Source: a virus (taxonomy: Duplodnaviria > Heunggongvirae > Uroviricota > Caudoviricetes). From it: 51,583 nt of DNA. The DNA lies in IMG/VR virus record IMGVR_UViG_2512047041_000005, positions 1 through 51,583 of that record, one strand, 5' to 3'. Position numbers and translations under genes: made by a program. The notes under the pieces are model-generated. The model was given only the letters and a program-made list of their open reading frames with translations, was not told the DNA's origin and did not search any database. Shown here piece by piece: positions 4,708 through 46,352 of the stretch (position 1 is its first letter; the number at the start of each line of letters is the position of its first letter).

Positions 4708-5004
4708 TTATACCTCTGAATCAATATCAGCCTGATGGTGAGCAATGGTTTCAACTATGTACCGGATGTGTTCTGCCATGCGCTCCTGAAACTCAACATC
4801 GTCATCAAACGCACGGGTAATGGCTTTTTTGCTGGCCCCGTGGCGTTGTAAATGATCGATGCATAGCGATTCAAACAGGTGCTGGGGCAGGCCTTTTTCC
4901 ATGTCGTCTGCCAGTTCTGCCTCTTTCTCTTCACGGGCGATCTGCTGGTAGTGACGCGCCCAGCTCTGAGCCTCAAGACGATCCTGAATGTAATAAGCGT
5001 TCAT
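4708..5004 (-). CDS. gam: Gam (RecBCD inhibitor), short form
   Basis: 98 aa [31 protein letters not shown]...; matches lambda GamS; upstream [13 protein letters not shown] is in another frame. Confidence 0.9.
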
Positions 5005-5223: not shown

Positions 5224-5356
5224 TTTTTGGGACTCCTGGCTGATTGAGTATGTCGATAAGGCGTTTCCATCCGTCACGTAATTTACGGGTGATTCGTTCA
5301 AGTAAAGATTCGGAAGGGCAGCCAGCAACAGGCCACCCTGCAATGGCATATTGCAT
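5192..5356 (-). CDS. cIII: cIII (FtsH inhibitor)
   Basis: 54-codon ORF below the track's 60-aa cut-off: [54 protein letters not shown], overlapping kil start as in lambda. Confidence 0.7.
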   Translation of the reverse strand: MQYAIAGWPVAGCPSESLLERITRKLRDGWKRLIDILNQPGVPKNGSNNYGYPD

Positions 5357-5428
5357 GGTGTGCTCCTTATTTATACATAACGAAAAACGCCTCGAGTGAA
5401 GCGTAATTGGTATGCGGTAACGCCGCGC

Positions 5429-5917: not shown

Positions 5918-6244
5918 ATGACTAAAAATACTCGTTTTTCCCCCGAAGTCCGTCAACGGGCAGTCCGTATGGTTCTGGAAAGTCAGAGCGAATATGACTC
6001 ACAATGGGCGACAATTTGTTCCATTGCTCCAAAGATTGGCTGTACGCCGGAGACTCTGCGTGTCTGGGTTCGCCAGCATGAGCGGGATACCGGGGGCGGT
6101 GATGGAGGGCTCACCACCGCTGAACGTCAGCGTCTGAAAGAGCTGGAACGTGAAAATCGTGAACTGCGCCGCAGTAACGATATCCTTCGCCAGGCTTCCG
6201 CTTATTTTGCGAAGGCGGAGTTCGACCGCCTCTGGAAAAAATGA
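5918..6244 (+). CDS. IS629 transposase OrfA
   Basis: 108 aa HTH/leucine-zipper OrfA ([50 protein letters not shown]...). Confidence 0.9.
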
Positions 6245-7131
6245 TGCCACTGCTGGATAAGCTGCGTGAGCAGTACGGGGTCGGACCGCTATGCAGCGAA
6301 CTGCATATTGCCCCGTCAACGTATTACCACTGTCAGCAACAGCGACATCATCCGGATAAACGCAGTGCCCGTGCGCAGCGCGATGACTGGCTGAAGAAAG
6401 AGATACAGCGCGTATACGATGAAAATCACAAGGTATACGGTGTGCGTAAAGTCTGGCGTCAGTTGTTACGGGAAGGTATCAGAGTGGCCAGATGCACTGT
6501 GGCACGTCTCATGGCGGTTATGGGACTTGCCGGTGTTCTCCGGGGTAAAAAGGTCCGTACGACCATCAGCCGGAAAGCCGTTGCCGCAGGCGACCGCGTA
6601 AACCGTCAGTTCGTGGCAGAACGACCTGACCAGCTGTGGGTGGCTGATTTTACTTACGTCAGCACATGGCGGGGCTTCGTCTATGTGGCGTTCATCATTG
6701 ATGTGTTTGCCGGATACATCGTGGGGTGGCGGGTCTCATCGTCCATGGAAACGACATTCGTGCTGGATGCACTGGAGCAGGCGTTATGGGCCCGTCGACC
6801 GTCCGGCACGGTCCATCACAGTGATAAAGGTTCTCAGTATGTATCGCTGGCCTACACACAGCGGCTTAAGGAAGCCGGATTACTGGCATCAACAGGAAGT
6901 ACAGGCGACTCGTATGACAACGCGATGGCGGAGAGCATCAATGGTCTTTACAAAGCGGAGGTAATACACCGTAAGAGCTGGAAAAACCGTGCAGAAGTGG
7001 AACTGGCCACACTCACGTGGGTGGACTGGTATAACAATCGACGATTGCTGGAAAGGCTGGGCCATACTCCTCCGGCAGAAGCAGAAAAAGCTTATTATGC
7101 TTCCATCGGAAACGATGATCTGGCAGCCTGA
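6241..7131 (+). CDS. IS629 transposase OrfB (DDE catalytic domain)
   Basis: 296 aa rve-type integrase core; overlaps orfA as in IS3-family frameshift pairs. Confidence 0.9.
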
Positions 7132-7173
7132 GTTCACAGATAAAACACTCTCCAGGAAACCCGGGGCGGTTCA

Positions 7174-7295
7174 AAATGATGGGTGATGGTTTCCTTTGGT
7201 GTTACTGCTGTAGGTTTGTTTCCAACAGTAAACGTCTGTTGAGCACATCCTGTAATAAGCATTGCCAGAGCGGCAGAAAACAACATTTTTTTCAT
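7174..7295 (-). pseudogene. bor: bor lipoprotein gene, 3'-truncated by IS629
   Basis: MKKMLFSAALAMLITGCAQQTFTVGNKPTAVTPKETITHHF then reading runs into the IS629 terminal repeat; lambda Bor-like signal peptide and lipobox. Confidence 0.75.
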
Positions 7296-7775
7296 CTTAT
7301 TATCCTGCATTGTTAAAAACGGCAGAATCCTATGTGACAACAATTAAACGATAGTTAAATGGATTGATGAAAATTAAAACTACACAGGTGGGCTCAGACT
7401 ATTGGAGGAAGTTGGGGACACTCAGAATCCTGTGGAATGAAATAAACCGGTCTATCCGTCCATTACCCTTTTAGCTGCGCTGTATCGTCGCCGTATTCCC
7501 GCATTAACCATGACCGTAGCCCGACGGGGAATTCCTTCTGCGTGAGTGTGCGGGAATAATTAAAAACGATGCACACCGGGTTTTTACCGCGTTAATGATT
7601 CGCGGGTTTATCCCGGTGCGATGGTGGAAGAAACAGGAAGCTGTATTACAGAAAGTGCTACTACTGTATCCCGATGCGATGTATGTAATGTGAGTCAGAT
7701 AATGGCACAGGATGTGGTGATGTGGCAGTCTGGAACACAGGATATATTGTCAGAATAAGACCCGTAGGAATAAAA

Positions 7776-8102
7776 ATGAAAAGACGCCTTTTACTACTTT
7801 TTCTGTTATCTGTCCTGGCAGTGGGATGCTCGCAGCAAAAAGCTGATGAGCCCCGGCAATTAGTGACGGTGTATCCACGATATCCGGAATATGCTGCAGC
7901 AAATTATATCAAGGGGCTGGTTGAGGTTAAGTTCGATATTGGTGCTGATGGGACTGTGACACGGATCGTTTTTCTCCGCTCAGAGCCTCATAATTTGTTT
8001 CGTGATGAAGTGGTGAAGGCCATGGCGAAATGGCGATTTGAAAAGAATCGCCCCTGTCAGGGAGTGAAGAGACAATTTATCTTTACGCCGTCACGTCCTT
8101 GA
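7776..8102 (+). CDS. Lipoprotein with TonB C-terminal-like domain
   Basis: MKRRLLLLFLLSVLAVGC lipobox; C-terminal YPEYAAANYIKGLVEVKFDIGADGTVT resembles TonB/TolA C-terminal fold. Confidence 0.5.
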   Translation: MKRRLLLLFLLSVLAVGCSQQKADEPRQLVTVYPRYPEYAAANYIKGLVEVKFDIGADGTVTRIVFLRSEPHNLFRDEVVKAMAKWRFEKNRPCQGVKRQFIFTPSRP

Positions 8103-8465
8103 TGCTTCCAGGTAGAGAGGGGCTGGAAGCAGGAGAAAAATGAAAGAGCCAGCGGTTATATTTTTGTCATGGCTGACGAGGAATGATGGAAGAAGGCGTT
8201 GTATGCCACACAACGCCTCACTGTTCATTTCTTCTTTTTCTCTGGTGGAACCCGATGAATAAGAGTTGCACTGGTTTCCGATGAGATGGCGATATACTCG
8301 GGCAAAGTATGCTGGCAGTTTTCCAACTGGTCAAAAATACCTGCTCTCGTCTGTTGCAATGCCTGCAGCATGCGGCGGCAATGCGCCTTGCTTTTACTAA
8401 CCATCTTTCCTTCCTCTATCAGTCGCTGCGTGAACTCATCATGGAATACCAGGTAAATGCGGATG

Positions 8466-8717
8466 TTATCGGTTTTGGCTACGCAGCATAGTACAAAACG
8501 GACAGGTGCATCCCGGGACGGGGGAGGCGTCACATGTCCCTGTGATGGTTGTTCCGGGTAATGTACTGTGTGGGGCATAAAAATGTCCGATAATTTTACT
8601 TTCTACCGCAGTTAGTTGATTCGTTGGTCCTGGTAGCACATTGGGCGAGGATTTAAATGCCAGGCAACTGAAGGATGATGTCGCAAGGGAGATAGCGAGA
8701 ATATTTCTGATTTTCAT
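8466..8717 (-). CDS. Small secreted cysteine-containing protein (83 aa)
   Basis: Signal peptide MKIRNILAISLATSSFSCLA; mature part has TGTCDASPVPGCTCPFC; overlaps an alternative ORF 8225-8578. Confidence 0.35.
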   Translation of the reverse strand: MKIRNILAISLATSSFSCLAFKSSPNVLPGPTNQLTAVESKIIGHFYAPHSTLPGTTITGTCDASPVPGCTCPFCTMLRSQNR

Positions 8718-8859
8718 TTGATGATGCCTCTGTGTGAAATGACGGTAAACGACGCACTTGTGCCGGCACATAATAGCAAGCACCATAATAGATCAGATTC
8801 GATTCTTGCTGTAAGTGATAATTATTCTCGTTTTCGGGTCCTTTCCGTCGATCCAACAG

Positions 8860-9052
8860 GTTACGGGGCGGCGACCTCGCGGTTTTTCACTATTTATGAA
8901 AATTTTTCAGGGAAAATCGTGTCGGTACTTCTCGAATATAACTTTTTGTTTTTTTAATATTGCATCCGTAAAGGTCCGACATGAAAGTGTCCGAAAATGC
9001 CTTTTTCTGGCGTTTTCATGTCGGGCCTTGTATTTGATAATGGGTTGTTTTC
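8860..9052 (+). other. Lambda-type cos site (cosN and cosB region)
   Basis: GGGGCGGCGACCTCGCGGTTTTTCACTATTTATGAAAATTTTT matches the lambda cohesive-end region as remembered; lies just upstream of Nu1. Confidence 0.7.
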
Positions 9053-9601
9053 ATGAAGGTTAATAAAAAGAGGCTTGCCGAAATTTTCAACGTGGACCCG
9101 CGGACGATTGAACGCTGGCAGTCTCAGGGACTCCCTTGCGCCTCCAAAGGTAGTAAGGGCATTGAATCTGTATTTGATACTGCCATGGCAATTCAGTGGT
9201 ATGCGCAGAGGGAAACTGATATCGAAAACGAAAAGCTCCGCAAAGAACTGGACGATTTGCGTGCGGCAGCGGAGTCAGATTTACAACCCGGCACCATTGA
9301 CTATGAACGCTACCGGCTCACAAAAGCGCAGGCAGATGCGCAGGAACTGAAAAATGCCCGTGAAGACGGAGTAGTGCTGGAAACTGAACTGTTTACCTTC
9401 ATTCTGCAACGTGTGGCACAGGAGATTTCGGGGATACTTGTGCGTGTGCCGTTGACATTACAGCGTAAATATCCGGACATTTCACCATCACACCTTGATG
9501 TGGTGAAAACTGAAATCGCGAAAGCCTCCAATGTTGCAGCTAAGGCCGGTGAAAACGTGGGCGGGTGGATCGATGATTTCAGACGCGCAGAAGGCAGCTA
9601 A
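9053..9601 (+). CDS. nu1: Terminase small subunit Nu1
   Basis: 182 aa [28 protein letters not shown]...; strong similarity to lambda Nu1. Confidence 0.9.
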
Positions 9602-9836
9602 TGCAGCCGGTGCGATAGCTACAGGGCTTTTATCTCTCATTATTCCTGTTCCACTGACGACAGTTCAGTGGGCCAATAAACATTATTACCTTCCTAAAGA
9701 GTCGTCTTATACCCCGGGGCGATGGGAAACACTGCCGTTTCAGGTTGGCATCATGAACTGTATGGGCAACGATCTGATTCGCACGGTTAACCTGATTAAA
9801 TCTGCCCGTGTTGGTTATACAAAGAGCGAGAGGTAA
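9573..9836 (+). pseudogene. A: Terminase large subunit A, N-terminal ~87-codon stub
   Basis: WANKHYYLPKESSYTPGRWETLPFQVGIMNCMGNDLIRTVNLIKSARVGY matches lambda gpA N-terminus, then stops; rest of A and all head/tail genes absent. Confidence 0.8.
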
Positions 9837-9838
9837 TT

Positions 9839-10270
9839 ATGCGTAAATTATGTGCTGTTATTCTGTCCGCAGTAGTCTGGCTGGTTGCCGCTGGTACGCC
9901 AGCGAGCGCAGCAGAGCATCAGTCCACACTAAGCGCCGGGTATCTTCAGACCCATACTGATATGCCAGGCAGTGATGACCTGAAGGGCATTAACGTGAAA
10001 TACCGTTATGAATTTACGGACACGCTGGGGCTGGTGACGTCATTCAGTTATGCCAATGCCAAAGATGAGCAAAAAACGCATTACAGCGATACCCGCTGGC
10101 ATGAAGATTCCGTGCGTAACCGCTGGTTCAGCATGATGGCGGGGCCATCTGTACGCGTGAATGAATGGTTCAGTGCTTATGCGATGGCAGGTGTGGCTTA
10201 CAGCCGTGTTTCGACGTTCTCCGGGGATTATCTCCGCGTAACTGACAACAAGGGGAAAACGCACGATGTG
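9839..10270 (+). pseudogene. lom: lom (Ail/Lom outer-membrane protein), 5' fragment
   Basis: Signal peptide and Lom-like beta-barrel N-terminal part; reading leaves Lom homology at about 10270 where the Mu-like element begins. Confidence 0.8.
10265..10270. repeat. Left copy of target-site duplication (ATGTGC)
   Basis: Same hexamer at 47651-47656; boundary is ambiguous by up to 3 nt because the element starts TGA. Confidence 0.5.
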
Positions 10271-10349
10271 CTGATGCGCCGCGCGATAAATGCACTCTAT
10301 CTTGTGCGATAAATGGCATCCACGCGGCGTTTCATTATTTGAAAAAGAA

Positions 10350-45101: not shown

Positions 45102-46352
<1,251 letters not shown>

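Follow-up and report, generated by a model that had tools for sequence, protein, structure and literature searches.

The interval between the bor remnant and the cos site of a degraded lambdoid prophage carries two genes for exported cell-envelope proteins, each under purifying selection. Open reading frame (ORF) A (positions 7776 to 8102, plus strand) encodes a lipoprotein precursor of 108 amino acids (aa; mature form, 91 aa) with a complete TonB C-terminal domain, and gene B (8466 to 8717, minus strand) is a genuine, overlooked gene for an 83-aa precursor of a predicted secreted protein of about 63 aa with four cysteines. The window, that is, the whole stretch of 51,583 nucleotides (nt) analysed here (IMG/VR record IMGVR_UViG_2512047041_000005), was assigned to a prophage of the phage-21 type by sequence comparison. 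We regard both genes as phage cargo, with the ORF A protein acting as a decoy for TonB boxes and the gene B product as a secreted four-cysteine protein; this is the best overall explanation that we can offer, and its chance would be slightly short of even. An earlier note on this DNA had proposed the two genes as candidate lysogenic-conversion factors. This proposal is supported in part: two selected genes for exported envelope proteins do lie in a cargo slot, and lysogenic conversion itself is still a conjecture. Each gene also occurs alone, and ORF A and gene B are independent accessory modules for cell-envelope proteins. Phage 21 is a classical model phage, and the cassette is present in about 22% of complete E. 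coli genomes, with gene B uncalled by standard pipelines.

Gene B is a genuine gene

The coding status of gene B was evaluated from its homologues, from the ratio of nonsynonymous to synonymous substitution rates (dN/dS) and from the borders of homology. In pairwise comparisons with four other lineages the dN/dS was 0.10-0.20. The differences were concentrated at third codon positions (43-57, versus 10-28 at first and 11-24 at second positions) in nine of ten comparisons, and the closest pair had 26 third-position differences versus 10 first and 13 second. Outside E. coli, the DNA homology starts 8 nt before the ATG and stops at the stop codon, and the gene is kept at full length under purifying selection in at least six genera, with relatives down to 27% identity.

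The earlier note had held the call to be uncertain because an alternative ORF overlaps it. This ORF does exist (8225 to 8578, minus strand, 117 aa) and covers the 3' third of gene B, but conservation does not favour it: it was rejected because the +1 frame has stops in the Salmonella and Citrobacter homologues, and relatives show stops or no counterpart, with no conserved extension beyond the borders of gene B. Thus, the dN/dS and third-position bias, the limits of homology and the stops in the +1 frame of relatives together identify the gene B frame as the coding one.

Both RefSeq and the curated phage 21 record annotate plus-strand ORFs in this region and omit gene B. The ORF at 8309 to 8491 (60 aa, WP_000881610.1) is annotated in both, and those at 7621 to 7758 and 8140 to 8262 additionally in phage 21; comparative support was found for none of the three. 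Note that a conservation test of the 60-aa ORF is impossible, since none of the 1223 E. coli copies of 8103-8465 falls below 95% identity, and its PHROG family comprises near-identical sequences only. Two short frames were likewise not taken as genes, a 37-aa minus-strand ORF (7463 to 7576) and the 45-aa plus-strand ORF (7621 to 7758): lineages differ by 1-nt indels in this conserved region, and in the Shiga toxin (Stx)-type copies the 45-aa ORF is no longer than 21 codons. It is very improbable that the 60-aa or the 117-aa ORF is the true coding sequence in place of gene B: the former is annotated by both sources and PHROG families exist for both, but the known copies of both share 95% identity or more, relatives have the 117-aa frame interrupted, and the overlap of the 60-aa ORF with gene B, a mere 26 nt, leaves room for both. 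A conserved small secreted family can evidently be missed where ab initio gene callers prefer overlapping ORFs.

ORF A encodes a lipoprotein with a complete TonB C-terminal domain

The N-terminus of ORF A (MKRRLLLLFLLSVLAVGC, followed by SQQ) is first basic, then hydrophobic, and ends in a lipobox; it reads MKRR-LLLLFLLSVLAVG-C-S and has no Asp at position +2, which is the outer-membrane sorting type. Variants of the protein carry the lipoboxes LSVGC-A and LVMGC-T/S, so that the overall pattern is L-x-x-G-C with Ser, Ala or Thr at +2. Residues 33-99 were matched by Pfam TonB_C (PF03544) with an E value of 7.3e-13 (49.2 bits; cut-off, 24.6), and the NCBIfam model tonB_Cterm matched with an E value of 1.8e-12. 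The lipoprotein seen in the earlier note is therefore confirmed, but its description of the domain as TonB C-terminal-like understates a domain that is complete and follows a tether of about 10 residues. Against the PDB chains of TonB (1u07, 1xx3, 2gsk in complex with BtuB and 2grx in complex with FhuA), the alignment covered TonB 150-230 with no gaps at about 1e-14, and identity to E. coli TonB over this region was 40%. The YP motif, the aromatic residues F180, F202, W213, Y215 (as Phe) and F230, and the last strand are all kept; the YP motif and these aromatic positions are important in TonB.

The remainder of TonB is missing. TonB residues of about 23-148, including the proline-rich spacer that spans the periplasm, have no counterpart in ORF A, and the full-length NCBIfam TonB equivalog models were covered only over their last 80 or so positions (45-69 bits; cut-offs, 265-448). 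Where TonB has a membrane anchor with His20 (SHLS face), ORF A has a predicted cleavable lipoprotein signal peptide with Val or Met at the aligned position. Since the anchor, His20 and the spacer are all absent, the ORF A protein cannot transduce energy or be energised by ExbB/ExbD.

A second lineage of ORF A, from Stx-type and related phages, is 67-71% identical and likewise 108 aa long, and its lipobox is preserved, the +2 residue being Thr or Ser. The dN/dS between the window's ORF A and the Stx-phage variant was 0.12, with 20, 17 and 52 differences at the first, second and third codon positions. This low ratio, together with the retention of the 108-codon frame, the lipobox and the domain in both lineages, identifies ORF A as a selected gene and not as a decaying tonB fragment.

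With regard to origin, residues 3-16 of the signal peptide (RRLLLLFLLSVLAV) align with residues 7-20 of TonB, at the start of its membrane anchor (RRFPWPTLLSVCIH). This hints that ORF A was born from tonB by an internal deletion, although the resemblance could be a chance one between hydrophobic segments. As for existing annotation, ORF A is an already annotated yet unstudied TonB-family variant, and its family in PHROG (phrog_1267) is named 'Rz-like spanin' under the category lysis. This name is probably a propagated mislabel, which will mis-annotate phage genomes.

A candidate decoy for TonB boxes

The pairing of the TonB box of a transporter with the TonB C-terminal domain is an established coupling step (PMC5413942), and the over-expressed periplasmic domain of TonB inhibits TonB-dependent iron import, as Howard et al. 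(2001, J Bacteriol 183:5885) are summarised in PMC9841981. Those engineered fragments place, as ORF A would, an energy-uncoupled TonB C-terminal region in the periplasm; they were soluble, over-expressed laboratory constructs, whereas ORF A is natural, selected and predicted to be lipid-tethered. The fragments of Howard, Herrmann, Stratilo and Braun (2001) are also said to have inhibited phi80 infection and killing by colicin M. Because ORF A keeps the part that pairs with the box and has lost the parts that deliver energy, and because the engineered domain is inhibitory, a decoy is the simplest reading. The protein would be made as a lipoprotein whose predicted lipid anchor tethers the TonB C-terminal domain at the outer membrane; there it would sit beside TonB-dependent transporters, pair strands with their TonB boxes in the manner of TonB, and compete with the host TonB. 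The entry of phages, colicins and siderophores by TonB-dependent routes might thereby be damped, so that the protein would serve in exclusion or protection at the periplasmic face, at some cost in nutrient uptake. We put forward this outer-membrane-tethered decoy tentatively, as somewhat less probable than the contrary, on the basis of the domain and signal comparisons above.

The nearest relatives of ORF A in sequence and in format are different proteins. TonB itself shares the PF03544 domain (1U07, 1XX3, 2GSK, 2GRX) with the identity, gapless alignment, YP motif, aromatic cluster and last strand described above; in contrast to E. coli TonB, ORF A is phage-borne, has a predicted lipid anchor, and lacks the N-terminal helix and the ExbB/ExbD link as well as His20 and the spacer. 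Llp of T5 and Cor of phi80, N15 and HK022 are, as ORF A is predicted to be, small phage-encoded outer-membrane lipoproteins. Cor inactivates FhuA, a TonB-dependent transporter, from the periplasmic side, and Llp is described as doing the same. Both are unrelated to ORF A in sequence, ORF A having no family match but TonB_C, and each acts on one receptor, whereas a decoy for TonB boxes would hit many transporters through TonB mimicry. If this is true, an 'anti-TonB' of this kind would exclude superinfecting phages and protect from colicins by a new mechanism, present in about one-fifth of complete E. coli genomes. Being lipid-anchored and energy-dead, such a TonB domain offers a ready test of phage manipulation of TonB-dependent uptake from the periplasmic side, which matters for resistance to phages and colicins, for the uptake of iron and vitamins, and for susceptibility to siderophore antibiotics in extraintestinal pathogens and in a probiotic strain.

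Several points weigh against the decoy. TonB Q160 and R166, which are contacts to TonB boxes or FhuA, are both replaced by Tyr in ORF A. If TonB were antagonised constitutively, the host should lose iron uptake. ORF A lies on the strand of the late operon, and the consensus scan found no convincing promoter of its own; judging from this strand, it may belong to the late genes and not to the morons expressed in the lysogen. Its product may then be made in lytic growth only and act during that phase, as Llp of T5 does. In the literature searched, no paper on the ORF A or the gene B protein was found. Finally, binding to peptidoglycan has been reported for the TonB C-terminal domain, and a tethering role is therefore possible.

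This last point leads to the main rival of the decoy, in which the domain would hold on to peptidoglycan and so link the outer membrane with the wall, like Pal or Lpp, making ORF A an envelope-stabilising or serum-resistance factor. The outer-membrane type of the lipoprotein, its short tether and its position next to bor/iss agree with such a role. The conserved parts, the last strand and the aromatic cluster, are those that pair with TonB boxes, and in the Stx-phage copies ORF A is found without bor; we consider this rival clearly the less probable one. Two other explanations are very improbable. In the first, ORF A would be a spanin-like component of the lysis cassette, in keeping with phrog_1267, which covers its full length at 5e-43, with its position downstream of S-R-Rz/Rz1 on the same strand, and with the resemblance of a predicted outer-membrane lipoprotein to the o-spanins; phage 21 already has a complete i-spanin/o-spanin pair (separate Rz and Rz1), a globular TonB_C domain is unlike the Rz1-type o-spanins (short, proline-rich lipoproteins that are embedded in or paired with an i-spanin gene and serve in lysis), and the label, the one source that names a spanin, is most likely propagated annotation. 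In the second, ORF A would be a functionless, decaying piece of a captured tonB, as older annotations ('partial tonB-like') and an N-terminus resembling that of TonB (RR-x5-LLSV) might suggest, which is contradicted by the dN/dS, by the two lineages of about 70% identity that both keep 108 codons, lipobox and whole domain, and by the viable phages that carry the gene.

The gene B protein and its family

The N-terminus of gene B (MKIRNILAISLATSSFSCLA, followed by FKSS...) is a signal peptide of the n-h-c type, MK-IRNILAISLATSSFS-CLA before F, with a signal-peptidase I site of the A-x-A/F type and a predicted cut between A20 and F21. The four cysteines lie within 14 residues in the C-terminal end (...TGTCDASPVPGCTCPFCTMLRSQNR) with the motif C-x8-C-x-C-x2-C. 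In an alignment of 22 sequences reaching down to 27% identity, A20-F21, G69, C70, C72, C75 and one more cysteine were invariant; this cysteine was C62 in the numbering of the tool and was taken to be the one of the GTC motif, C61 by our own count. G60, P66, L78 and R79 were nearly invariant. The signal peptide and the cluster of four cysteines described in the earlier note are thus features of the whole family, the A/F site included. SSFSC also fits the PROSITE lipobox, but the lipoprotein assignment was rejected, because Cys18 is absent in distant members while the A/F site is invariant. The predicted mature product, of about 63 aa, has a mass of 6.6 kDa and an isoelectric point of 8.5.

Besides the 22 close homologues, an exhaustive profile search of 1.84 billion representatives gave a family of 30 clusters, nearly all of 79-86 aa, together with a few long matches that have the short Cys motif alone in common. 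The family is confined to Enterobacterales (named members: Escherichia, Salmonella, Klebsiella, Citrobacter, Enterobacter, Serratia, Pantoea and Buttiauxella), and every member is annotated as 'hypothetical'. Gene B had no match in Pfam, NCBIfam, PHROG or PADLOC, nor among the PDB sequences by profile search; the 22 members had no Pfam or NCBIfam match at E<=1, nor did they resemble an enterotoxin, microcin, inhibitor or defence family. The PADLOC defence models likewise matched neither ORF A nor the 60-aa ORF. A heat-stable enterotoxin or a class II microcin was rejected as the identity of gene B, which has a Sec-type leader, no family match and, in most contexts, no companion genes.

Two irregular groups were noticed in the search. 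Among the long matches, P0041 and P0043 are low-complexity, eukaryote-like proteins with a ubiquitin-like N-terminus and four to five repeats of P-[IL]-P-G-C-N-C-P-K-C-T-x-L-R-N; the C-terminus of gene B carries this short motif too (PGCxCPxCxxLR). The rare gene B variants P0003 and P0006 read the +1 frame (...PEQPSQGHVTPP...) over a stretch of some 15 residues, after which the usual C-terminal motif is restored; either a compensated frameshift pair or a sequencing error could account for this frame switch.

Gene B is oriented like bor. A scan of a genome collection for its contexts returned only three loci. In Salmonella salamae, diarizonae and arizonae the homologue lies 200-460 bp upstream of a co-oriented bor homologue, in an island with a PPC-domain gene on one side and bor on the other and with omptin, SPATE autotransporter and NEL effector genes near. 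Elsewhere the family occurs as a solitary chromosomal gene. Bor/Iss thus resembles gene B as envelope cargo of the same slot, in the same orientation and syntenic in Salmonella, but it comes from an unrelated family (PF06291) and, as a lipoprotein, differs from gene B with its signal-peptidase I site.

From its sequence, gene B is most likely a periplasmic protein with either two disulfides or a four-cysteine metal site. It would be exported by Sec and cut after Ala20 to give a periplasmic protein of about 6.6 kDa, in which the four C-terminal cysteines would form the disulfides or the site; phages seem to have captured the gene beside bor, with a control different from that of its chromosomal relatives. 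Periplasmic Cys thiols are normally oxidised, which favours disulfides over a metal site and speaks against the metal-linked version. Two AlphaFold models, each with two short helices, were poor (predicted local distance difference test scores of 50.4 and 58.7), too poor to serve in a fold search.

A possible link of gene B relatives to zinc

The promoter regions of chromosomal relatives of gene B were scanned with the gammaproteobacterial Zur consensus, which was checked on the K-12 znuA-znuC operator (21/23 in the script output, 20/23 by our own count). Palindromes of the form TGTTAT-N3-ATAACA were found (loci L147, 4890-4912 and 9373-9395; L143, 1332-1354; L012, about 5956-5983; L144, about 4958-4980; the one before the Klebsiella transporter operon described below is included), and the promoters of the relatives scored 17/23 in Klebsiella and Buttiauxella, 16/23 in Citrobacter and 15/23 in Serratia; the chance rates per 200 nt are 0.2% for a score of at least 17, 0.8% for at least 16 and 3.2% for at least 15. 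In 10 kb of the Klebsiella locus the only two matches of at least 17 were the promoter of the gene B homologue and that of the adjacent ZnuA-type transporter operon. The neighbours of the relatives comprise ZnuA/ABC-3 genes, ALAD and amidohydrolase paralogues, a FUR-family gene with CobW, a FecIR/TonB-dependent-receptor cluster and a P-type ATPase.

These observations suggest that the gene B family is tied to the zinc-limitation response, which we consider possible but doubtful. No Zur box was found in the phage-borne or mobile copies of gene B, the best score in 7344-8900 of the window being 13/23, so that the link comes from distant relatives and the consensus scan. The Zur-regulon proteins ZnuA and ZinT are periplasmic, and the relatives of gene B similarly have Zur-box-like operators and zinc-homeostasis neighbours; unlike ZnuA and ZinT, gene B is non-homologous to them and far smaller, its candidate ligands are four Cys instead of His, Asp or Glu, and its phage copy has no such operator. 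The relatives that bear Zur boxes point to a testable role in nutritional immunity.

In the rival explanation, gene B is a disulfide-knotted effector with no link to metal (an inhibitor of an enzyme of the host or of a competitor, e.g., lysozyme or a protease; an exclusion factor; or a toxin-like pre-pro-peptide), and the Zur-like sites are incidental. The combination of a Sec signal with a C-terminal Cys cluster, the virulence-rich island of the Salmonella copy, and the phage and island copies devoid of a Zur box all fit this explanation. It is nevertheless unlikely, given that the members resemble none of the enterotoxin, microcin, inhibitor or defence families, that there is no double-glycine leader and no export or immunity gene near, and that metal-homeostasis genes adjoin the homologues in several unrelated lineages. 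As a separate observation, in Salmonella diarizonae the palindrome CAAATGATAAAAATTATCATTTC lies between the gene B and bor homologues (locus L141, 5337-5359); it resembles a Fur or Zur operator placed before bor.

The bor-to-cos interval and its distribution

ORF A and gene B occupy exactly the bor-to-cos interval of phage 21, where the earlier note had placed them. The right end of coliphage 21 (OL657228.1) is 100% identical to 7344-8865, viable phages such as ev017, Perceval and PhiR57_1 are 99.9-100% identical to the same stretch, and E. coli IAI39 matches bases 7144-9060 at 99.9% identity, the truncating IS3 element included. The central spacer (8103-8465) was found in 1223 of 5426 complete E. 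coli genomes (about 22%), and carriers of the cassette include Nissle 1917, APEC O18 and IAI39.

On the left, the interval is bounded by the bor/iss remnant (7173 to 7295, minus strand), the N-terminal 41 codons of a gene truncated by an IS3-family element; it was identified from the ORF list and from the RefSeq pseudogene 'iss, incomplete' of IAI39, and the intact iss of Nissle 1917 aligns with it. On the right, cosQ and cosN (8836 to 8877, plus strand) were mapped from the curated phage 21 record and the sequence: cosQ is 8836-8842, the right chromosome end of phage 21 is 8865, and the cohesive end GGGCGGCGACCT begins at 8866.

A comparison with the bor-to-cos regions of other lambdoid phages, as the earlier note had suggested, revealed a variable cargo slot: lambda-like phages have the same flanks with different inserts (e.g., YlcI/YnfO genes). 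ORF A and gene B are separable, as gene B stands beside Nu1 with no ORF A in other E. coli prophages, and in Stx-type phages ORF A is followed by an unrelated 66-aa ORF in place of gene B. By the swapping of inserts and this separability, the region has the position of a moron locus, a variable slot between conserved phage modules that would be dispensable for growth. In the iss regions of ColV plasmids, about 230 bp upstream of iss are kept (7344-7575), and neither ORF A nor gene B is present.

A conserved element with a candidate RNA structure upstream of ORF A

A conserved non-coding element lies upstream of ORF A on the plus strand (7482 to 7632, the conserved tail ending at about 7632). 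It is about 90% conserved between phage lineages, as compared with about 71% for the ORF A coding sequence, and it is not coding, since copies differ by single-base indels. The element was found in 432 phage records, including lambda and HK629, where it lies between bor and lambdap78 (HK629, locus L021, 1801-1910; a further copy is in JLK-2012, locus L019, 2496-2675). From conservation and pairing, a candidate RNA structure of three helices was predicted: P1 (7482-7488/7566-7572), P2 (7494-7504/7548-7558) and P3 (7574-7579/7613-7618), the last of which encloses a variable insert.

In 42 non-redundant copies, 99.3% of the cells are paired, with compensatory changes in three pairs. On the plus strand there are 127 G.U cells and 8 mismatches, each one-sided change giving a G.U pair, versus 135 mismatches on the minus strand; note that this count is biased, the prediction having been made on the plus strand, and that the sequences are closely related. 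RNAalifold gave -22.4 kcal/mol for the plus strand versus -9.4 kcal/mol for the minus strand. The element is apparently structured as a plus-strand RNA, which we regard as a lead, not as a demonstration. An Rfam scan of 7100-9100 gave nothing credible at E<=1, and the small RNAs (sRNAs) AgvB, AsxR, Esr41 and Pas were rejected as its identity, being located elsewhere in prophages. Many copies open with a 10-codon mini-ORF (ATG CGC xGT ATC GTC GCC GTA TTC CCG CAT TAA), the 3' half of which is the left arm of P2; the copy of the window has CTG for ATG.

Joined together, the strongest forms of these proposals would make ORF A a natural 'anti-TonB' that blocks many transporters, gene B the founding member of a zinc-linked, four-cysteine periplasmic family, and the element an unrecognised RNA of lambdoid late transcripts, including that of lambda. 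All of them holding at once is unlikely, by our estimate.

Promoters, terminators and a Fur-box-like motif

Scanning of the interval with promoter consensus sequences gave four promoter-like sites, versus 2.8 expected, none of which is well placed, and only weak terminator-like sites. By eye, a candidate extended -10 element (TGcTATTAT) was read at 8770-8778 on the minus strand. Between the convergent ORF A and gene B, a perfect 9-bp hairpin was read from the sequence at 8194 to 8218 (AGGCGTTGT, 7 nt, ACAACGCCT). It might serve as a terminator in both directions; on the plus strand, a T-rich run comes only after 8 nt, and the terminator scan did not flag the hairpin.

An A/T-rich motif that resembles a Fur box by consensus match abuts cosQ (8811 to 8835). 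At 8817-8835 it scores 15/19, the only match of at least 15 in the window; it is located some 100 nt upstream of gene B, and divergent prophages retain it. Control of gene B by Fur was rejected, because lambda-type HK629, which has no gene B, carries a closer match, GTAGATGATAATCATTATC, at the same cosQ-side spot (locus L021, 3385-3405; 16/19 by our own count). Thus, the motif belongs to the region left of cos and not to gene B, and packaging or real Fur binding are candidates for its role.

Surroundings in the prophage

The IS3-family element inserted in bor/iss lies at 5918-7131, with a programmed-frameshift ALIL pseudoknot at 6199-6315, and links the late-region remnant to genes of the early left region (cIII, kil, gam and bet); from this junction, the prophage is heavily rearranged. 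On the other side of cos, the region 9531-10320 holds a truncated large terminase gene in fusion with a partial Ail/Lom gene (both pseudogenes according to RefSeq in IAI39), and recombinase/invertase and tail-fibre genes follow. Two Rfam families scored above their gathering scores in the window, the Hfq-binding sRNA isrC (46161-46283, minus strand; 145 bits) and the lambda cIII thermoregulator (5311-5369, minus strand; 88.5 bits).

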